64,000 nt of DNA, taken from Nitrospirota bacterium. Lineage in GTDB: Bacteria; Nitrospirota; UBA9217. The translations under genes were made by a program, and so were the position numbers. The notes beneath the pieces are model-generated. The model was given only the letters and a program-made list of their open reading frames with translations, ran no database searches and was not told the DNA's origin. The stretch spans positions 1,056,001-1,120,000 of the forward strand of contig CAVTRN010000002.1 in NCBI GenBank assembly GCA_963737155.1, given 5' to 3'. Below are positions 11,449 to 15,119 of this stretch, piece by piece; position 1 is the first letter of the stretch; every line of letters begins with the position of its first letter.

Positions 11449-11706
11449 ATGAGCGAAGAGATCAAAGCTGACACAATGATCGATATAAAGGGGCAGGTCT
11501 GTCCCTACACCTTTGTCCGATCAAAACTGACTATTGAAAAAATGAAACTCGGCGAGGTGCTCGAAATCGTGACCGACCACAAACCTGCGTCGGAGAATGT
11601 CCCCAGGAGCATGGAGAATGAGGGACAGAAGGTCTTGAAAATAGACCAGACCGGGGAAAAAGAGTGGCACATCTTTGTTCGCAAGGACAAAGAGAAGAAA
11701 AAATAA
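11449..11706 (+). CDS. TusA/SirA-family sulfurtransferase
   Basis: IDIKGQVCPYTFVRSK (CP motif), GEVLEIVTD. Confidence 0.9.
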   Translation: MSEEIKADTMIDIKGQVCPYTFVRSKLTIEKMKLGEVLEIVTDHKPASENVPRSMENEGQKVLKIDQTGEKEWHIFVRKDKEKKK

Positions 11707-11824
11707 GATTGTTACAAGCACGGCTGAATGCGGATTAAGAGACAAACTGTGGAAGGGGTTTTTTACCGTATGTATCCCTCTGTTTCTGAAGCGCAGGGAG
11801 CCGTGGTTATGGATATGGGTTACT

Positions 11825-12628
11825 ATGGACTTTACCGAAGATCAAATACTGCGTTACAGCAGGCATATCCTGCTCCCTGAAGTAGGTGGCGATGGGCAGG
11901 AGAAACTCCTGCAGGCAAAGGTTGTGCTGGTGGGGGCTGGCGGCCTCGGTTCACCGGTTGGATACTATCTTGCCGCGGCAGGAGTCGGGACCATTGGTGT
12001 GATAGACAACGACCGCGTGGAGATGTCGAACCTACAGCGCCAGATCGCTCACAACACGAGCAGACTCGGGATGTCCAAGGCCGATTCCGCGAAAGAGACG
12101 TATGAGACGTTGAACCACGATGTGAAGGTTATTACGCACAAAGAGCGGCTGTCGTCAAAGAACATTTTGGACATCATCCGGGACTACGAAATTGTAGTGG
12201 ACGGGAGCGATAACTTTCCCACTCGCTACCTCGTGAACGACGCCTGCGTGATGCTCAAAAAAACGCTCGTGAGTGCGGCTGTTTTCCGGTTCGAGGGGCA
12301 GGTGATGACCATTTTCCCAGGTTCGGGCCCCTGCTATCGATGCCTGTTCGAGGTTCCGCCGCCGCCCGGCATGGTGCCATCCTGCCAGGAGGCGGGTATT
12401 CTGGGTGTGGTAACTGGCGTGATCGGAACAATCCAGGCAACGGAAGTCGTCAAGACAATCCTCGGCATCGGTCATCCGCTGAAGGGAAGGCTTCTCTTGT
12501 GGAACGCGCTTGACATGAATTTCCGTATCGTGAAGGTGCCTCGGAACAGGGAATGCCCGGTTTGCGGCGAACACGCAACGATAAAAGAACTGATCGATTA
12601 TGAACAGTTCTGCTCCATGAGCCACTAA
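11825..12628 (+). CDS. MoeB/ThiF-family E1 adenylyltransferase (no rhodanese domain)
   Basis: RYSRHILL, GAGGLGSP, SNLQRQ, DGSDNFPTRY, PCYRC, CQEAG, CPVC. Confidence 0.95.
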   Translation: MDFTEDQILRYSRHILLPEVGGDGQEKLLQAKVVLVGAGGLGSPVGYYLAAAGVGTIGVIDNDRVEMSNLQRQIAHNTSRLGMSKADSAKETYETLNHDVKVITHKERLSSKNILDIIRDYEIVVDGSDNFPTRYLVNDACVMLKKTLVSAAVFRFEGQVMTIFPGSGPCYRCLFEVPPPPGMVPSCQEAGILGVVTGVIGTIQATEVVKTILGIGHPLKGRLLLWNALDMNFRIVKVPRNRECPVCGEHATIKELIDYEQFCSMSH

Positions 12629-12733
12629 AGGCTGTGCACGGCTGTGCATTGCTAGTCCGGTGGATACGGGATTTCCTCGACACCGGACCTTAGCGATGCC
12701 ACTGACCGGAACGAGAGCCGAGGTCCTTTCTCC

Positions 12734-13150
12734 ATGTTGACGATACAAAGGGCCGATGTCCAGGCGATATTTGACCACTGCAATCGCGAGTATCCGAATG
12801 AAGCGTGCGGGATTCTTGCCGGCAGAGGAACCACTGTTGAAAAAGTCTATTCGCTGACGAGCGAAAATCCGAGCCCGACGTTTTATCAGATAGAAGCCCA
12901 AGAGCAATTCCGGGTCCTCAGGGAGATGAGGGACACGGGAAGGGAATTGGTCGGCATCTATCACTCCCATCCCGCCGGAAGGGCATATCCGTCTTCAACG
13001 GATGTGGAGTTGGCGTTCTATCCGGAAGCCGTGTACGTTATTGTTTCACTTATCGAGCGAAAGGATCCGTGCGTGAAAGGGTATACCATCATCGACGGGA
13101 AGGTGACGGAAGTTTCGTTGAACATTACTGTGGAGGAGCATCAACAGTGA
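12734..13150 (+). CDS. JAB/MPN+ (M67, Mec-like) metallopeptidase
   Basis: PNEACG and YHSHP-x5-PSSTD JAMM motif. Confidence 0.93.
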   Translation: MLTIQRADVQAIFDHCNREYPNEACGILAGRGTTVEKVYSLTSENPSPTFYQIEAQEQFRVLREMRDTGRELVGIYHSHPAGRAYPSSTDVELAFYPEAVYVIVSLIERKDPCVKGYTIIDGKVTEVSLNITVEEHQQ

Positions 13151-14379
13151 CCTTTGTCAAGGGACTCCGGTGCGTGGAGTGTGGCAGGGAATATAAGTGC
13201 GAACCCCTCTACGTATGCGAGTTCTGCTTCGGTCCGCTTGAAGTCGACTACGACTACGCACGGATCAGGAAGGATATGACAAAGCAAAAGATCGAGTCGC
13301 GTCCCTGTAATATGTGGCGCTATCGTGAACTTCTGCCTGTCGACGGTGACCCGGTCACGGGTTTCGATTCCGGTTTCACGCCACTGGTGAAGGTTCGGAA
13401 CTTGGCCGAAGCATGGGGCGTAAAAGAAATTTATCTTAAAGACGATTCAGTGAACCACCCGACGTTGTCATTCAAGGACCGTGTTGTCGCGGTGGCTGTA
13501 ACGAAAGCCAGGGAATTCGGTTTTGACACCGTTGCCTGCGCATCGACTGGCAACCTGGCGAATTCCCTTGCGGCTTTGTCTGCTCGGGCAGGCATGAAAC
13601 GGTTTATCTTCACGCCGTCGAACCTGGAATATTCGAAGACCATCGGTTCACTGATTTATAAGCCAAATCTGGTTATGGTGGATGGCGCCTACGATGAGGT
13701 TAACCGGCTTTGCTCCGAAATTGCGGATAAATATCGATGGGCCTTTGTGAATATCAACCTGCGGCCTTTCTATGGCGAGGGTTCGAAGTCCATGGGTTTC
13801 GAGATTGCTGAACAGCTGGGCTGGAAAACACCGGACAATATTGTGGTACCCAATGCAAGCGGATCTCTCTTAACGAAGCTCTGGAAGTCATTTAAAGAAC
13901 TGGAAACAATCGGGCTCGTCCCGGCCGTCAAGACCCGGGTATTCGCCGCACAGGCCGCCGGCTGTAATCCAATCATAACGGCCATCAGGGAAGGAAGCGA
14001 CATCATCAGGCCGGTGAAACCTCGGACCATCGCACGATCGATCTCCATCGGAAACCCGGCTGACGGCTATTACGCCGCAAAAGTAACCAGGGACTCCGGC
14101 GGATACGGTTCCGATGCAACGGATGAGGAGATTGTGGACACGATACAGAGTCTTGCCGAGACTGAGGGGATGTTTGTGGAGCCCGCGTGTGGCGCGACCG
14201 TGGCGGTGGCCAAAAAGCTTGTGGACTCGGGCCGGATAAATAGGGACGGGACACTCGTTCTCTGCATCACTGGCAACGGGCTTAAGACCGCCGAGGCAAT
14301 CGCGGACCGGCTCACGATGCCGGTGCCGATAAAACCGAACATTGAGTCTTTCGAGGAACTGATGAAGAAAATCCACTAG
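13147..14379 (+). CDS. Threonine synthase-like fold-type II PLP enzyme
   Basis: N-terminal CVECG...CEFCFGPL Zn ribbon, [10 protein letters not shown] (PLP lysine), [20 protein letters not shown] start overlaps the JAB stop. Confidence 0.9.
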
Positions 14380-14488
14380 TTACTTCAACACAGGCATCGC
14401 GGAGCAACGATTCATGCTGACCGTTGTAGAACTCGGTGACGCGTGCCCGGTTTTAAAATACGTTTTCTCTCGTCTAGGAGGAGCGACC

Positions 14489-14767
14489 ATGTCGATTAAA
14501 GTGAGAATCCCCACACCGCTGCAAAAACTCACCGGCGGAAAAGCTGAGGTGGAATGCGACGCAAAAAATGTTTTAGAGCTTGTCGATGTTCTTGAGAAGG
14601 ATTACCCCGGGATAAAAGAACGGCTGTCGGACGGCGGGAAGATCCGGCGGTTCATCAATATTTACGTGAATGAAGAGGATATCCGCTTCATGAACAAGGA
14701 AGAAACAACACTCAAAGACGGGGATAGTATTTCCATCGTTCCCGCCATTGCAGGCGGACGCTGTTAA
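14489..14767 (+). CDS. MoaD/ThiS/CysO-family sulfur carrier, C-terminus ...IAGG-RC
   Basis: [31 protein letters not shown] plus 2 extra residues. Confidence 0.93.
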
Positions 14768-14873
14768 TGCCCACATCCGCAATCAGAGGCTGGATCGCGT
14801 AGACGAAGCTTTTTTGGCAGGTGTTGTCTTTTTCACCGTCTACGCTGCGGCACCGCGGACTTCAGGAGGGAGC

Positions 14874-15119
14874 ATGGCGACAAAAAGGGTCAAGTTGACG
14901 TTTCCGCAGGAACTGATCAAGGAGCCCATCATTTTCACCATGGCGAGGCAGTTCAATATAATGCCGAACATCCGCAGCGCCAAGGTCACTGAAAGCGTGG
15001 GCGAGGTTATGCTGGAACTTGATGGCGAAGAGAATGAACTTGCGGCTGGCATCGCCTATCTCAAGGAGCGCGGCGTCAAGGTAGATGCTGGCGAAGGTGG
15101 TGATCCGGCAGGTTCTTGA
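14874..15119 (+). CDS. Stand-alone NIL-domain protein
   Basis: KRVKLTFPQELIKEPII...PNIRSAKVTESVGEVMLELDG. Confidence 0.85.
   Translation: MATKRVKLTFPQELIKEPIIFTMARQFNIMPNIRSAKVTESVGEVMLELDGEENELAAGIAYLKERGVKVDAGEGGDPAGS

Follow-up and report, generated by a model that had tools for sequence, protein, structure and literature searches.

The six genes at 11,449–15,119 of the 64-kb window (the whole stretch of DNA that was analyzed) quite probably encode a MetM/MetO-type pathway from O-phosphohomoserine (OPH) to homocysteine via a protein thiocarboxylate, set within an aspartate-family operon. This reading is based on the observed gene content, the protein families, the conserved linkage of the genes, the control of the PLP enzyme's clade by SAM riboswitches and the split of that clade from canonical threonine synthase (ThrC).

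Organization of the Operon

The co-oriented run of genes opens with a class I/II aminotransferase (8,839–10,035, + strand; PF00155, E 5e-60), which exceeds the cut-off of the alanine transaminase model NF006033 (653 vs. 647 bits) and is possibly a supplier of aspartate. Relatives of it are present in 8 of the 80 best related loci, a survey that spans at least 17 named phyla. A promoter-like site lies 5′ of this first gene (8,769–8,797, + strand; TTGACA-17-TATTAT, 11 of 12 matches); it is weak evidence, and the count of such sites was not above that in shuffled sequences. Between positions 8,000 and 20,000 of the + strand no terminator-like site is listed save one at 8,250–8,273, which precedes the operon.

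The next gene is hom, encoding a homoserine dehydrogenase with a C-terminal ACT domain (10,095–11,444, + strand; PF00742, E 1.6e-66, plus ACT; NF004976, 553.7 bits). It is followed on the same strand by genes for an 85-aa TusA-family sulfurtransferase with a Cys-Pro motif (11,449–11,706; PF01206, E 6e-20), a 267-aa MoeB/ThiF-type E1 adenylyltransferase (11,825–12,628; PF00899, E 8e-83), a Mec/HcyD-like Prok-JAB (JAMM) metallopeptidase (12,734–13,150; PF14464, E 2e-26), a MetM-like, ThrC-like PLP enzyme of 410 aa (13,147–14,379; PF00291 or PALP, E 9e-65; TIGR00260), a CysO/MetO-like carrier of the ThiS/MoaD type with 92 aa (14,489–14,767; PF02597, E 7e-18) and a standalone NIL protein of 81 aa (14,874–15,119; PF09383, E 4.5e-18). 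Downstream, also on the + strand, are an apgM-like gene for a HomK-type homoserine phosphotransferase (15,203–16,447) and lysC, for an aspartate kinase with two ACT domains (16,509–17,756; PF00696 plus ACT; NF005155, 652 bits). The open reading frames (ORFs), Pfam and NCBIfam thereby confirm the earlier note in its description of six co-oriented sulfur-relay genes between hom and apgM-lysC. The translational coupling of JAB and the ThrC-like enzyme that it had claimed is read directly in the sequence, where the JAB stop codon overlaps the GTG with which the PLP gene starts (GTGA) and a GGAGGAG Shine-Dalgarno sequence precedes. The window was also said to be free of MoaE, ThiG, CysM/CysK and MetY, and this holds: Pfam found none of them in the 71 non-overlapping ORFs with 70 aa or more, and HMM searches of all 883 stop-to-stop segments with 40 aa or more returned a single PALP-fold protein, carrier, NIL, E1, JAB and TusA each.

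We propose, from its family and its position, that the HomK protein is the supplier of OPH. Its gene belongs to the hom operon and reaches 569.9 bits on TIGR02535, the ‘proposed homoserine kinase’ model, against a cut-off of 446.3, and passages of PMC13759103 and its preprint describe a member of the HomK family, BT2402, that rescues an E. coli thrB mutant. The preprint also describes a Glu as a specificity residue of the family.

An Enzyme Clade Separate From Canonical Threonine Synthase

The PLP enzyme lies above the cut-off of TIGR00260, the NCBI thrC equivalog model (272.1 bits vs. 167.1), and slightly under that of PRK08197 (301.9 vs. 303 bits). Solved ThrCs (1uim, 6cgq, 2zsj and 2d1f) align to its residues 52–407 only (E 1e-56 to 1e-50), and the N-terminus is a four-Cys zinc ribbon that is unmatched in them. 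Membership in the CysK/CysM family was rejected (TIGR01138 for cysM, 33.6 vs. 394.2 bits; TIGR01136, 35.5 vs. 344), as was cysteate synthase, the model of which reaches 50.8 of the needed 324.9 bits and covers residues 7–194 only (TIGR03844).

A phylogeny against true ThrC, which the earlier note had suggested, sets the enzyme in a large clade apart. A FastTree phylogeny of 165 rows unites the window enzyme with the enzymes of all 80 loci in one 123-row clade (support 100), outside of which are the five canonical ThrCs that some of these loci also encode. A quick IQ-TREE phylogeny of 54 rows gives the clade an SH-aLRT of 98–99 and includes the enzyme of the actinomycete Nonomuraea gerenzanensis. 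Neither tree groups the window enzyme with canonical ThrC. At the residue level, 46 positions set the clade apart: each has a conservation of at least 90% across the 81 members, and the five canonical ThrCs lack the conserved residue. The clade has 73 conserved positions in common with canonical ThrC. Residues L137, N204, R206 and Y209 of the window enzyme align with T88, S155, N157 and R160 of Thermus ThrC, and S238 aligns with N188; L137, N204 and Y209 occur in every clade member (81 of 81), against T, S and R in the five canonical paralogues. The canonical phosphate site, which reportedly comprises T88, S155, R160 and N188 in Thermus (Omi et al. 2003), is replaced in the window enzyme by L137, N204, Y209 and S238.

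Canonical thrC genes do occur beside this enzyme elsewhere. One sits directly between NIL and homK in each of the three closest relatives (L001, L002 and L003) and one within the L065 locus, scoring 305.7–332.8 bits on TIGR00260, and L059 encodes a further thrC-model protein (285.1 bits) that joins the other four with weak support. HMM searches of the 883 segments found no canonical thrC in the 64-kb window. A gene that the closest relatives have is missing from the window, which speaks for dual use in the window lineage, where one enzyme would make both homocysteine and threonine with OPH split between attack by water and by the thiocarboxylate. The protein itself offers some support, since 7 of its 41 clade-specific positions differ from the clade consensus, three of them (299, 346 and 350) by carrying the canonical residue. 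The corresponding motifs of the clade are FAETAGGVT and TIAKSLAIGNP and those of canonical ThrC are FCEPASAAS and TIATAIRIGNP; the forms FVEPA(C/G)GAT and TIARSI(S/A)IGNP are limited to the window protein and its closest relatives, P0001–P0004 (at least 88% identical). In addition, a Microcystis homologue 51.6% identical to MetM is described in part of PMC12172450 as having threonine synthase activity on OPH in vitro. We nevertheless consider dual use unlikely, given that the window enzyme keeps 34 of the 41 clade-specific residues, among them every one that aligns with a phosphate-site residue of Thermus ThrC, and that a canonical thrC may sit beyond the 64-kb window.

Carrier Genes and SAM Riboswitches Linked to the Clade

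A carrier gene follows the PLP enzyme gene within 1.5 kb on the same strand in 72 of the 80 best related loci, and three of the eight loci without one have at most 1,637 nt of downstream sequence. Because this pairing recurs across at least 17 named phyla, the arrangement is not a matter of chance, and the neighborhood conservation that the earlier note had proposed to check is borne out. A NIL gene is present in 46 of the 80 loci and is fused to the C-terminus of the carrier in 8 of them.

Of 18 sources scanned, 10 have a match to the Rfam family RF00162 immediately 5′ of the enzyme gene, and a covariance model (R1) built from nine of these matches detected a SAM riboswitch in 38 of the 80 best loci plus Nonomuraea, always on the + strand and just 5′ of the gene. 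No riboswitch was found in another 38 loci, each of which offers at least 400 nt 5′ of the gene, and the remaining four are not assessable. As predicted by these models, SAM riboswitches regulate the enzyme's clade, and their presence in 38 of 80 loci ties it to methionine and not to threonine. The window has no SAM riboswitch at the Rfam gathering threshold, at E up to 1 between 8,050 and 8,900, or with model R1. Compared with canonical ThrC, with which it shares the fold, the PLP lysine and, as we propose, the OPH substrate, the enzyme is distinguished by a separate clade with its 46 specific positions, by the zinc ribbon and by linkage to a carrier gene and, in the clade, to SAM riboswitches. 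On these relationships we propose that it is a homocysteine synthase that depends on the carrier thiocarboxylate.

Components of the Sulfur Relay

PF00899 is the sole Pfam match of the E1 protein, which has no rhodanese domain, matches the MoeZ/MoeB models of NCBIfam over the adenylation part only, and has Uba4, ThiF and MoeB as its best solved relatives (E 1e-57 to 1e-52). TusA adjoins a 267-aa E1, or is next but one to it, in L011, L013 and L018, and the E1 of L011, the one of these three scanned with Pfam, is also without a rhodanese domain. TusA may be the persulfide donor for E1, replacing the rhodanese function.

The JAB protein aligns to 2kks (E 2e-23) with its motif E...HSHP...S..D intact. 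The carrier gene ends in GGA GGA CGC TGT TAA and its protein in ...PAIAGG-RC, a two-residue extension past a GG pair that is invariant in 43 aligned carriers. Among 10 carriers with an extension of at least 10 aa, 8 have a JAB gene in their locus, vs. 6 of 40 carriers ending in GG. The profile of the 43 carriers has its best match in M. tuberculosis CysO (3dwg_C, from the CysM-CysO complex; E 1e-31), whereas MoaD-type chains are matched at E 2e-13 or weaker.

The NIL protein consists of the NIL domain alone and cannot itself relay sulfur because it contains no cysteine. Its profile best matches the C-terminal domains of MetN (E 3.6e-9 to 3e-6), and an Asn of the NIL motif, at least 90% conserved, aligns with MetN N295; we propose that it is a ligand-sensing or adaptor partner of the carrier. 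NIL domains of MetN and of the DUF39 pathway (NIL/ferredoxin), as described in part of PMC5764234, share with the window protein a methionine or homocysteine context. Unlike them, the window NIL is a free protein of 81 aa, its counterparts in the eight loci above are C-terminal parts of the carrier, and no ATPase, ferredoxin or DUF39 partner is found in the window. An aspartate-semialdehyde sulfurtransferase of DUF39 and NIL/ferredoxin was also considered and rejected, as the window protein is NIL only and Pfam detected no DUF39 among the window ORFs.

Could the enzyme be a plain threonine synthase after all, with TusA, E1, JAB and carrier as accidental neighbors that serve ubiquitin-like conjugation or another thiolation (molybdopterin, thiamine or tRNA)? 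It passes TIGR00260 and lies among hom, homK and lysC, and E1 (334 vs. 450 bits), carrier (50.3 vs. 60) and JAB (83.7 vs. 130) all have sub-threshold matches to archaeal SAMP-system models. We regard this as highly improbable: the carrier gene and the SAM riboswitch accompany the enzyme at the frequencies given above, the clade is separate from canonical ThrC with five loci encoding both (L059 with weak support), MoaE and ThiG were not found in the window, and the carrier profile is far closer to CysO than to MoaD-type chains.

Comparison With Described Systems

The earlier note knew of no biochemical characterization of this combination, and here it needs correction. The MetM/MetO/Mec/MoeZ system of Streptomyces albulus converts OPH to homocysteine (Hasebe et al. 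2024, Appl Environ Microbiol 90:e0124724, as described in passages of PMC13759103, its preprint and PMC12172450) and is listed as experimentally supported in GapMind 2026, the relevant passages of which also call MetM ‘often misannotated’ as threonine synthase and mention that the Mec of Dissulfurispira thermophila, a species of the Nitrospirota, is diverged. As far as these sources describe it, S. albulus metM has a SAM riboswitch upstream and metO adjacent, and the system shares with the window a ThrC-homologous PLP enzyme beside a ThiS/MoaD-fold carrier with a C-terminal GG, an E1 for sulfur loading, a JAB/Mec hydrolase for maturation of the carrier's C-terminal end (in the window a JAB gene with this predicted role), and OPH and homocysteine as substrate and product, which for the window are likewise predicted. 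By the same descriptions, the window differs in that its E1 is without the rhodanese domain of MoeZ and is preceded by a TusA gene, in the lack of a SAM riboswitch, in the NIL gene after the carrier, in the RC extension of the carrier, and in the placement of the genes within a hom-homK-lysC operon. Orthology to S. albulus MetM (UniProt A0A059WBP2) was judged from the descriptions in citing papers and by proxy from Nonomuraea, whose enzyme is 50.7% identical to the window enzyme and whose layout of riboswitch, enzyme and ThiS is that of S. albulus; no Streptomyces-named entry was among the 120 matches listed in a search seeded with Actinomycetota.

The CysO/CysM/Mec/MoeZ route of M. tuberculosis uses a carrier of the same family (3dwg CysO), an E1, a JAB protein and a fold-type II PLP enzyme that acts on a phosphorylated amino acid, a logic that recurs in the window. 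The window enzyme differs in being ThrC-like and not CysM (TIGR01138, 33.6 vs. 394), its substrate would be OPH and not O-phosphoserine, and its E1 has no rhodanese domain. CysK/CysM genes adjoin the PLP enzyme in many related loci and, among 13 related-locus ORFs scanned, share their clusters with JAB and E1. Cysteine synthesis by the enzyme with O-phosphoserine and the carrier thiocarboxylate as substrates, a CysM job on a ThrC scaffold that the earlier note had kept as an alternative, is the least probable reading of all: the CysO-like carrier favors it and the clustering suggests that cysteine and homocysteine routes share parts, but the clade is under SAM riboswitches, hom and HomK would supply OPH, the cysM score is far under its cut-off, and dedicated CysK/CysM beside the enzyme imply that it is not their substitute.

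In Wolinella succinogenes, HcyS, HcyF, HcyD and MetY reportedly carry out protein-thiocarboxylate-dependent homocysteine synthesis, work that is attributed to Krishnamoorthy and Begley in 2011. The condensing enzyme there is the fold-type I O-acetylhomoserine sulfhydrylase MetY, which is found neither in the 71 ORFs nor in the 883 segments of the window, where the activated substrate would instead be a phosphate ester. The Wolinella carrier is made with a residue past GG that a JAB protease removes, a likeness to the window carrier.

Proposed Pathway

For the MetM/MetO-type reading, we infer the chemical steps, the sulfur source and the functions of JAB (two) and NIL as follows. LysC, Asd (encoded elsewhere), Hom and HomK would produce OPH. 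JAB would trim the carrier from ...GG-RC to ...GG, the rhodanese-less E1 would adenylate its terminal glycine, and a TusA persulfide, or sulfide, would turn the adenylated glycine into the thiocarboxylate. The PLP enzyme would remove phosphate from OPH and add the carrier thiocarboxylate at C-gamma, not water at C-beta. An S-to-N shift and then hydrolysis by JAB would probably resolve the acyl-homocysteine adduct to homocysteine and free carrier, and NIL would be an accessory on or with the carrier, most likely a methionine-type ligand sensor. Several observations count against this reading: the PLP enzyme passes the thrC equivalog model and departs from its clade at the seven positions given above, the window has neither a SAM riboswitch nor the canonical thrC of the closest relatives, the E1 has no rhodanese domain, and threonine synthase activity was reported for the Microcystis homologue.

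The core of this scheme (a ThrC-fold enzyme acting on carrier-COSH and OPH, charging by E1 and processing by JAB) was already put forward in the earlier note, and the clade, the carrier linkage in 72/80 loci, the riboswitches in 38/80 and HomK support it; its mechanism gains support and its novelty does not. The system is real, if largely known, and has a few extras; its product is most likely homocysteine, the precursor of methionine.

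A candidate homocysteine pathway in the homoserine operon

We read the cluster between hom and lysC as most likely a new Nitrospirota member of the MetM/MetO-type pathway characterised in 2024 in S. albulus, in which O-phosphohomoserine (OPH) and a carrier thiocarboxylate yield homocysteine. The mechanism put forward in the earlier note, with a ThrC-like enzyme that condenses the substrate with the carrier thiocarboxylate and a JAB peptidase that releases the amino acid, was right in outline, but the combination was thought there to be uncharacterised.

All six co-oriented genes claimed for the module are present on the + strand according to ORFs, Pfam and NCBIfam. 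These are TusA (11449-11706), a ThiF/MoeB E1 of 267 aa without a rhodanese domain (11825-12628), a Prok-JAB peptidase (12734-13150), a ThrC-like PLP enzyme of 410 aa (13147-14379), a ThiS/MoaD-fold carrier of 92 aa (14489-14767) and a NIL protein of 81 aa (14874-15119). The + strand run that holds them opens with an aminotransferase gene (8839-10035) and hom (10095-11444), and continues with an apgM-like gene (15203-16447), lysC (16509-17756) and a citramalate synthase gene (17834-19429). A promoter-like site lies upstream of the run (8769-8797) and no + strand terminator-like site is listed inside it. The JAB stop codon overlaps the GTG start of the enzyme (GTGA), with a GGAGGAG Shine-Dalgarno sequence in front, and the carrier ends in ...PAIAGG-RC. 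Pfam was applied to the full set of 71 non-overlapping ORFs (70 aa or longer) and our own HMMs to every one of the 883 stop-to-stop segments (40 aa or longer). In the HMM scan of the whole window, the PALP fold, carrier, NIL, E1, JAB and TusA were each represented by a single gene, and neither scan of the 64 kb found MoaE, ThiG, CysK/CysM or MetY, the absence of which had been noted earlier.

Several other features of the window were recorded. Relatives of the aminotransferase gene occur in 8 of the 80 best related loci from other genomes (L010, L011, L012, L050, L054, L061, L066 and L073), immediately after the NIL or carrier gene in L010 and L012. Distant from the operon lie an ORF of 85 aa that matches rhodanese in part (26997-27254) and an S-methyl-5'-thioadenosine phosphorylase of methionine salvage (28663-29580; TIGR01694, 326 bits vs 275). 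The lowest G+C of the window (0.414 vs about 0.52) falls at 50001-52000, between an OsmC-like gene and dsrA. The segment 51857-63993 carries dsrA (565 bits), dsrB (484 bits), a cobB-like dsrN, a family-less 119-aa ORF, dsrC, a small 2x[4Fe-4S] ferredoxin, DsrH- and DsrE-like (dsrEFH-like) genes and dsrMKJOP-like genes. When they lie beside dsrAB, DsrEFH-like genes usually accompany sulfur oxidation or disproportionation.

The PLP enzyme and canonical threonine synthase

Wherever a source names the enzyme gene, the name given is threonine synthase. The window enzyme passes the NCBI thrC model (272 bits, cut-off 167), and its best solved relatives are threonine synthases (E 1e-56 to 1e-50), which cover residues 52-407 only; its N-terminal four-cysteine ribbon has no match among solved structures. 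The closest named relatives are from Nitrospirota. A related-locus search with a 13-sequence alignment as the query, limited to one genome per species, gave 600 pattern matches and 596 confirmed relatives, of which the best 80 loci were kept (52-66% identical, at least 17 named phyla). The clade is very common: at E 1e-30 or better the matches number 1,712 cluster representatives, a count that also includes other ThrC relatives.

The earlier note had called for a phylogeny of the enzyme against true ThrC, and the two kinds separate in two trees built by rapid methods. With FastTree (165 rows), the window enzyme and all 80 locus enzymes fall in one 123-row clade with support 100, outside of which lie 5 canonical ThrCs from the same loci; a "quick" IQ-TREE of 54 rows gave the clade an SH-aLRT of 98-99. 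Within the FastTree clade the window enzyme is sister to those of L001-L003 (support 98). Of 26 ORFs that are second PALP genes in related loci, 18 were scanned with NCBIfam, which assigned 5 to thrC and 13 to CysK/CysM. A canonical thrC (TIGR00260, 305.7-332.8 bits) lies directly between NIL and homK in L001, L002 and L003, and another within the same score range shares the L065 locus with the ThrC-like gene. A further thrC-model protein in L059 (285.1 bits) groups with the other four with weak support. Since these five loci encode thrC as well as the ThrC-like gene, their genomes have both enzymes.

The clade is also marked by its residues. Compared with the only 5 canonical ThrCs on the other side of the contrast, 46 positions are at least 90% conserved in 81 clade members and absent from the canonical paralogues. 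Clade-specific L137, N204, R206 and Y209 align with T88, S155, N157 and R160 of Thermus ThrC, and further examples are G307 for Trp and T381 for Asp. The substrate-phosphate site of Thermus ThrC reportedly consists of T88, S155, R160 and N188 (Omi et al. 2003). The clade retains the PLP lysine, K110, along with 73 further conserved positions. The pattern points to a pocket that is rebuilt on the leaving-group and nucleophile side, with the PLP lysine kept in place.

Could the enzyme of this particular lineage serve both threonine and homocysteine synthesis? We consider such a dual role improbable. It is kept alive because the window has no counterpart of the canonical thrC that separates NIL from homK in L001-L003, the three closest relatives, its own NIL-homK gap being just 83 nt, and because positions 299, 346 and 350 carry the canonical ThrC residue in the window enzyme and in its closest homologues (P0001-P0004, 88-96% identical). 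At 7 of the 41 clade-specific positions these five proteins deviate from what is usual in the clade, and only they carry TIARSI(S/A)IGNP and FVEPA(C/G)GAT (residues 297-300 and 345-350), while 108 other close homologues have TIAKSLAIGNP and FAETAGGVT or near variants. That the enzyme is simply the housekeeping threonine synthase is very unlikely in view of the separate clade, the clade-specific residues and the presence of both paralogues in five loci. Cysteate synthase, CysM and the DUF39 system do not fit as identities (NCBIfam).

SAM riboswitches

Regulation bears on the homocysteine reading through a route of its own. In 10 of the 18 sources scanned, Rfam detected the SAM riboswitch RF00162 (65-92 bits; gathering score 44.4) immediately 5' of the enzyme gene. 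A covariance model made from 9 RF00162 sites and run on the window and 81 loci recovered all 10 Rfam sites, added none in the other 8 sources and reached a total of 39 sites, in 38 of the 80 loci and in Nonomuraea, all on the + strand and just upstream of the enzyme gene. The riboswitch is absent in 38 loci with at least 400 nt upstream, and a further 4 loci are not assessable. By phylum it is seen in 15 of 17 Verrucomicrobiota, 7 of 9 Planctomycetota, 4 of 8 Acidobacteriota, 5 of 16 Chloroflexota and 2 of 3 Actinomycetota loci. Control of the enzyme gene by SAM across these phyla argues for methionine metabolism and not threonine metabolism. These counts provide support for the role of the clade that comes from sequence and is independent of the Streptomyces work.

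According to PMC12172450, the S. albulus metM gene also has a SAM riboswitch upstream, whereas the window operon has none, and our search for a regulatory RNA upstream of the operon found none. The roughly 730 bases between rpsF and the operon (8107-8838) contain no family-matching ORF, no Rfam match at E up to 1, and three copies of a 13-nt direct repeat, GTGGCTGCCAGCA.

Linkage to the carrier and JAB

Neighbourhood conservation, a check called for in the earlier note, was assessed in the best 80 loci, which come from at least 17 named phyla, using HMMs trained on standalone proteins. In 72 of these loci the enzyme gene has a carrier gene on the same strand, no more than 1.5 kb downstream. 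The exceptions comprise L004, L078 and L014, with just 106, 0 and 1637 nt of downstream sequence, and L015, L017, L039, L049 and L056, with more than 3.6 kb and still no carrier. A NIL gene is found within 2.5 kb in 46 of the 80 loci, in the order enzyme-carrier-NIL in 36 and enzyme-NIL-carrier in 10, every one of the latter from Chloroflexota. In all 10 Nitrospirota loci the carrier and NIL are present and the riboswitch is not.

The best match of the carrier profile is CysO of M. tuberculosis in the CysM-CysO complex (3dwg_C, E 1e-31), against E 2e-13 or weaker for MoaD and SAMP chains. The 72 carriers end in GG in 40 cases, have 1-7 extra residues in 22 and at least 10 in the remaining 10, which are 8 NIL fusions, a ThiS-ThiF fusion and a ThiS-CMD reading. 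JAB is present in the locus for 8 of the 10 long-extension, 4 of the 22 short-extension and 6 of the 40 GG-ending carriers, raw counts with no adjustment for shared ancestry.

Some loci show other arrangements. ThiS and ThiF form a single polypeptide in L016 (11235-12302), one reading frame in L071 (11388-12350) joins ThiS to a downstream carboxymuconolactone-decarboxylase domain, and L035, L045 and L062 each have two tandem carrier genes. In seven Nitrospiraceae/Nitrospirales loci (L022, L029, L031, L033, L034, L048 and L052) the genes run from CysK through E1, the ThrC-like enzyme, the carrier, NIL and another E1 to JAB, with NCBIfam confirmation of CysK for L022 only. With two E1 genes and one carrier, these look like joined cysteine and homocysteine routes.

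Comparison with the known pathway and a proposed mechanism

GapMind 2026 (PMC13759103 and its preprint, citing Hasebe et al.) rates four steps of the S. albulus pathway as experimentally supported, among them the carrier MetO, the sulfur ligase MoeZ and Mec, a [MetO]-L-cysteine hydrolase needed to mature a MetO terminus. It also lists a diverged Mec for Dissulfurispira thermophila (Nitrospirota) and reports that BT2402 of the HomK/TIGR02535 family, to which the apgM-like neighbour in the window belongs, rescues an E. coli thrB mutant (PMC13759103). An adjacent metO-like gene accompanies a Microcystis homologue (PMC12172450). No Streptomyces name is among the 120 matches listed by an Actinomycetota-seeded enzyme search, and the actinomycete Nonomuraea gerenzanensis, obtained from a search of a plasmid collection, is used as the proxy for S. 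albulus. It has a riboswitch at 5816-5957, the enzyme at 6001-7191 (50.7% identical to the window enzyme and inside the clade) and ThiS at 7231-7506. There are two further differences. The ligase of the known system is MoeZ, whereas the window has a rhodanese-less E1 and TusA; and the window has a NIL partner, of which the available portions of accounts of the S. albulus system make no mention.

In the most likely mechanism, LysC, Asd encoded elsewhere, Hom and HomK would supply OPH. JAB would strip the RC extension from the carrier, the E1 would adenylate its terminal glycine, and a TusA persulfide or sulfide would then yield the thiocarboxylate. The ThrC-like enzyme would eliminate phosphate from OPH and add the thiocarboxylate at C-gamma. 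By analogy with CysO/Mec, the adduct would be converted to homocysteine, probably by JAB following an S-to-N acyl shift. We infer from its recurrence that TusA may stand in for the missing rhodanese domain: in L011, L013 and L018 its gene is the immediate or next-but-one neighbour of one for a 267-aa E1. The E1s of L008 and L006 have rhodanese domains.

The NIL protein

In 8 loci (L005, L006, L007, L009, L011, L013, L018 and L024) carrier and NIL form a single polypeptide, in which NIL begins a few residues past the conserved PAIAGG of the carrier. The NIL profile matches MetN C-terminal domains alone (E 3.6e-9 to 6e-3), apart from one chance-level match at E 0.57. Family members lack a conserved cysteine and the window protein is cysteine-free. 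An asparagine of the NIL motif, at least 90% conserved, aligns with MetN N295, a residue that is reportedly required for methionine trans-inhibition (the 2015 work of Yang and Rees). A fusion-partner search among longer proteins gave one match only, a 171-aa protein with PF00691 and PF09383. A literature search that paired NIL with thiocarboxylate, ThiS, sulfur carrier, MoaD or threonine synthase turned up nothing beyond the NIL/ferredoxin studies of the DUF39 pathway, Hasebe 2024 lying outside its coverage.

We propose a ligand-sensing role because the conserved asparagine aligns with MetN N295. It is a tentative and rather unlikely possibility that the MetM/MetO pathway has a fifth component, so far unrecognised, in NIL, which would sense a methionine-type ligand and act on the carrier itself. 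Since the fused NIL is C-terminal to the diglycine in the 8 fusion loci, JAB would have to remove it before the E1 acts. Ligand-bound NIL could gate carrier maturation or sequester the carrier, which would provide feedback at the protein level in the absence of a SAM riboswitch. In the lineage of the window, this role may go together with an operon that has lost its thrC and an enzyme partly remodelled toward both threonine and homocysteine synthesis. Raw counts lean toward NIL as a substitute for the riboswitch, with NIL in 26 of 35 riboswitch-less vs 17 of 34 riboswitch loci, but no association emerges from independent tree pairs (median p 1; 5 pairs on supported branches), and the counts are not used as evidence.

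Further study would best be directed at the NIL protein associated with the carrier and at the thrC that the operon lacks. Renaming the enzyme gene as a homocysteine synthase would close an apparent gap in methionine synthesis in Nitrospirota and in many uncultured phyla.
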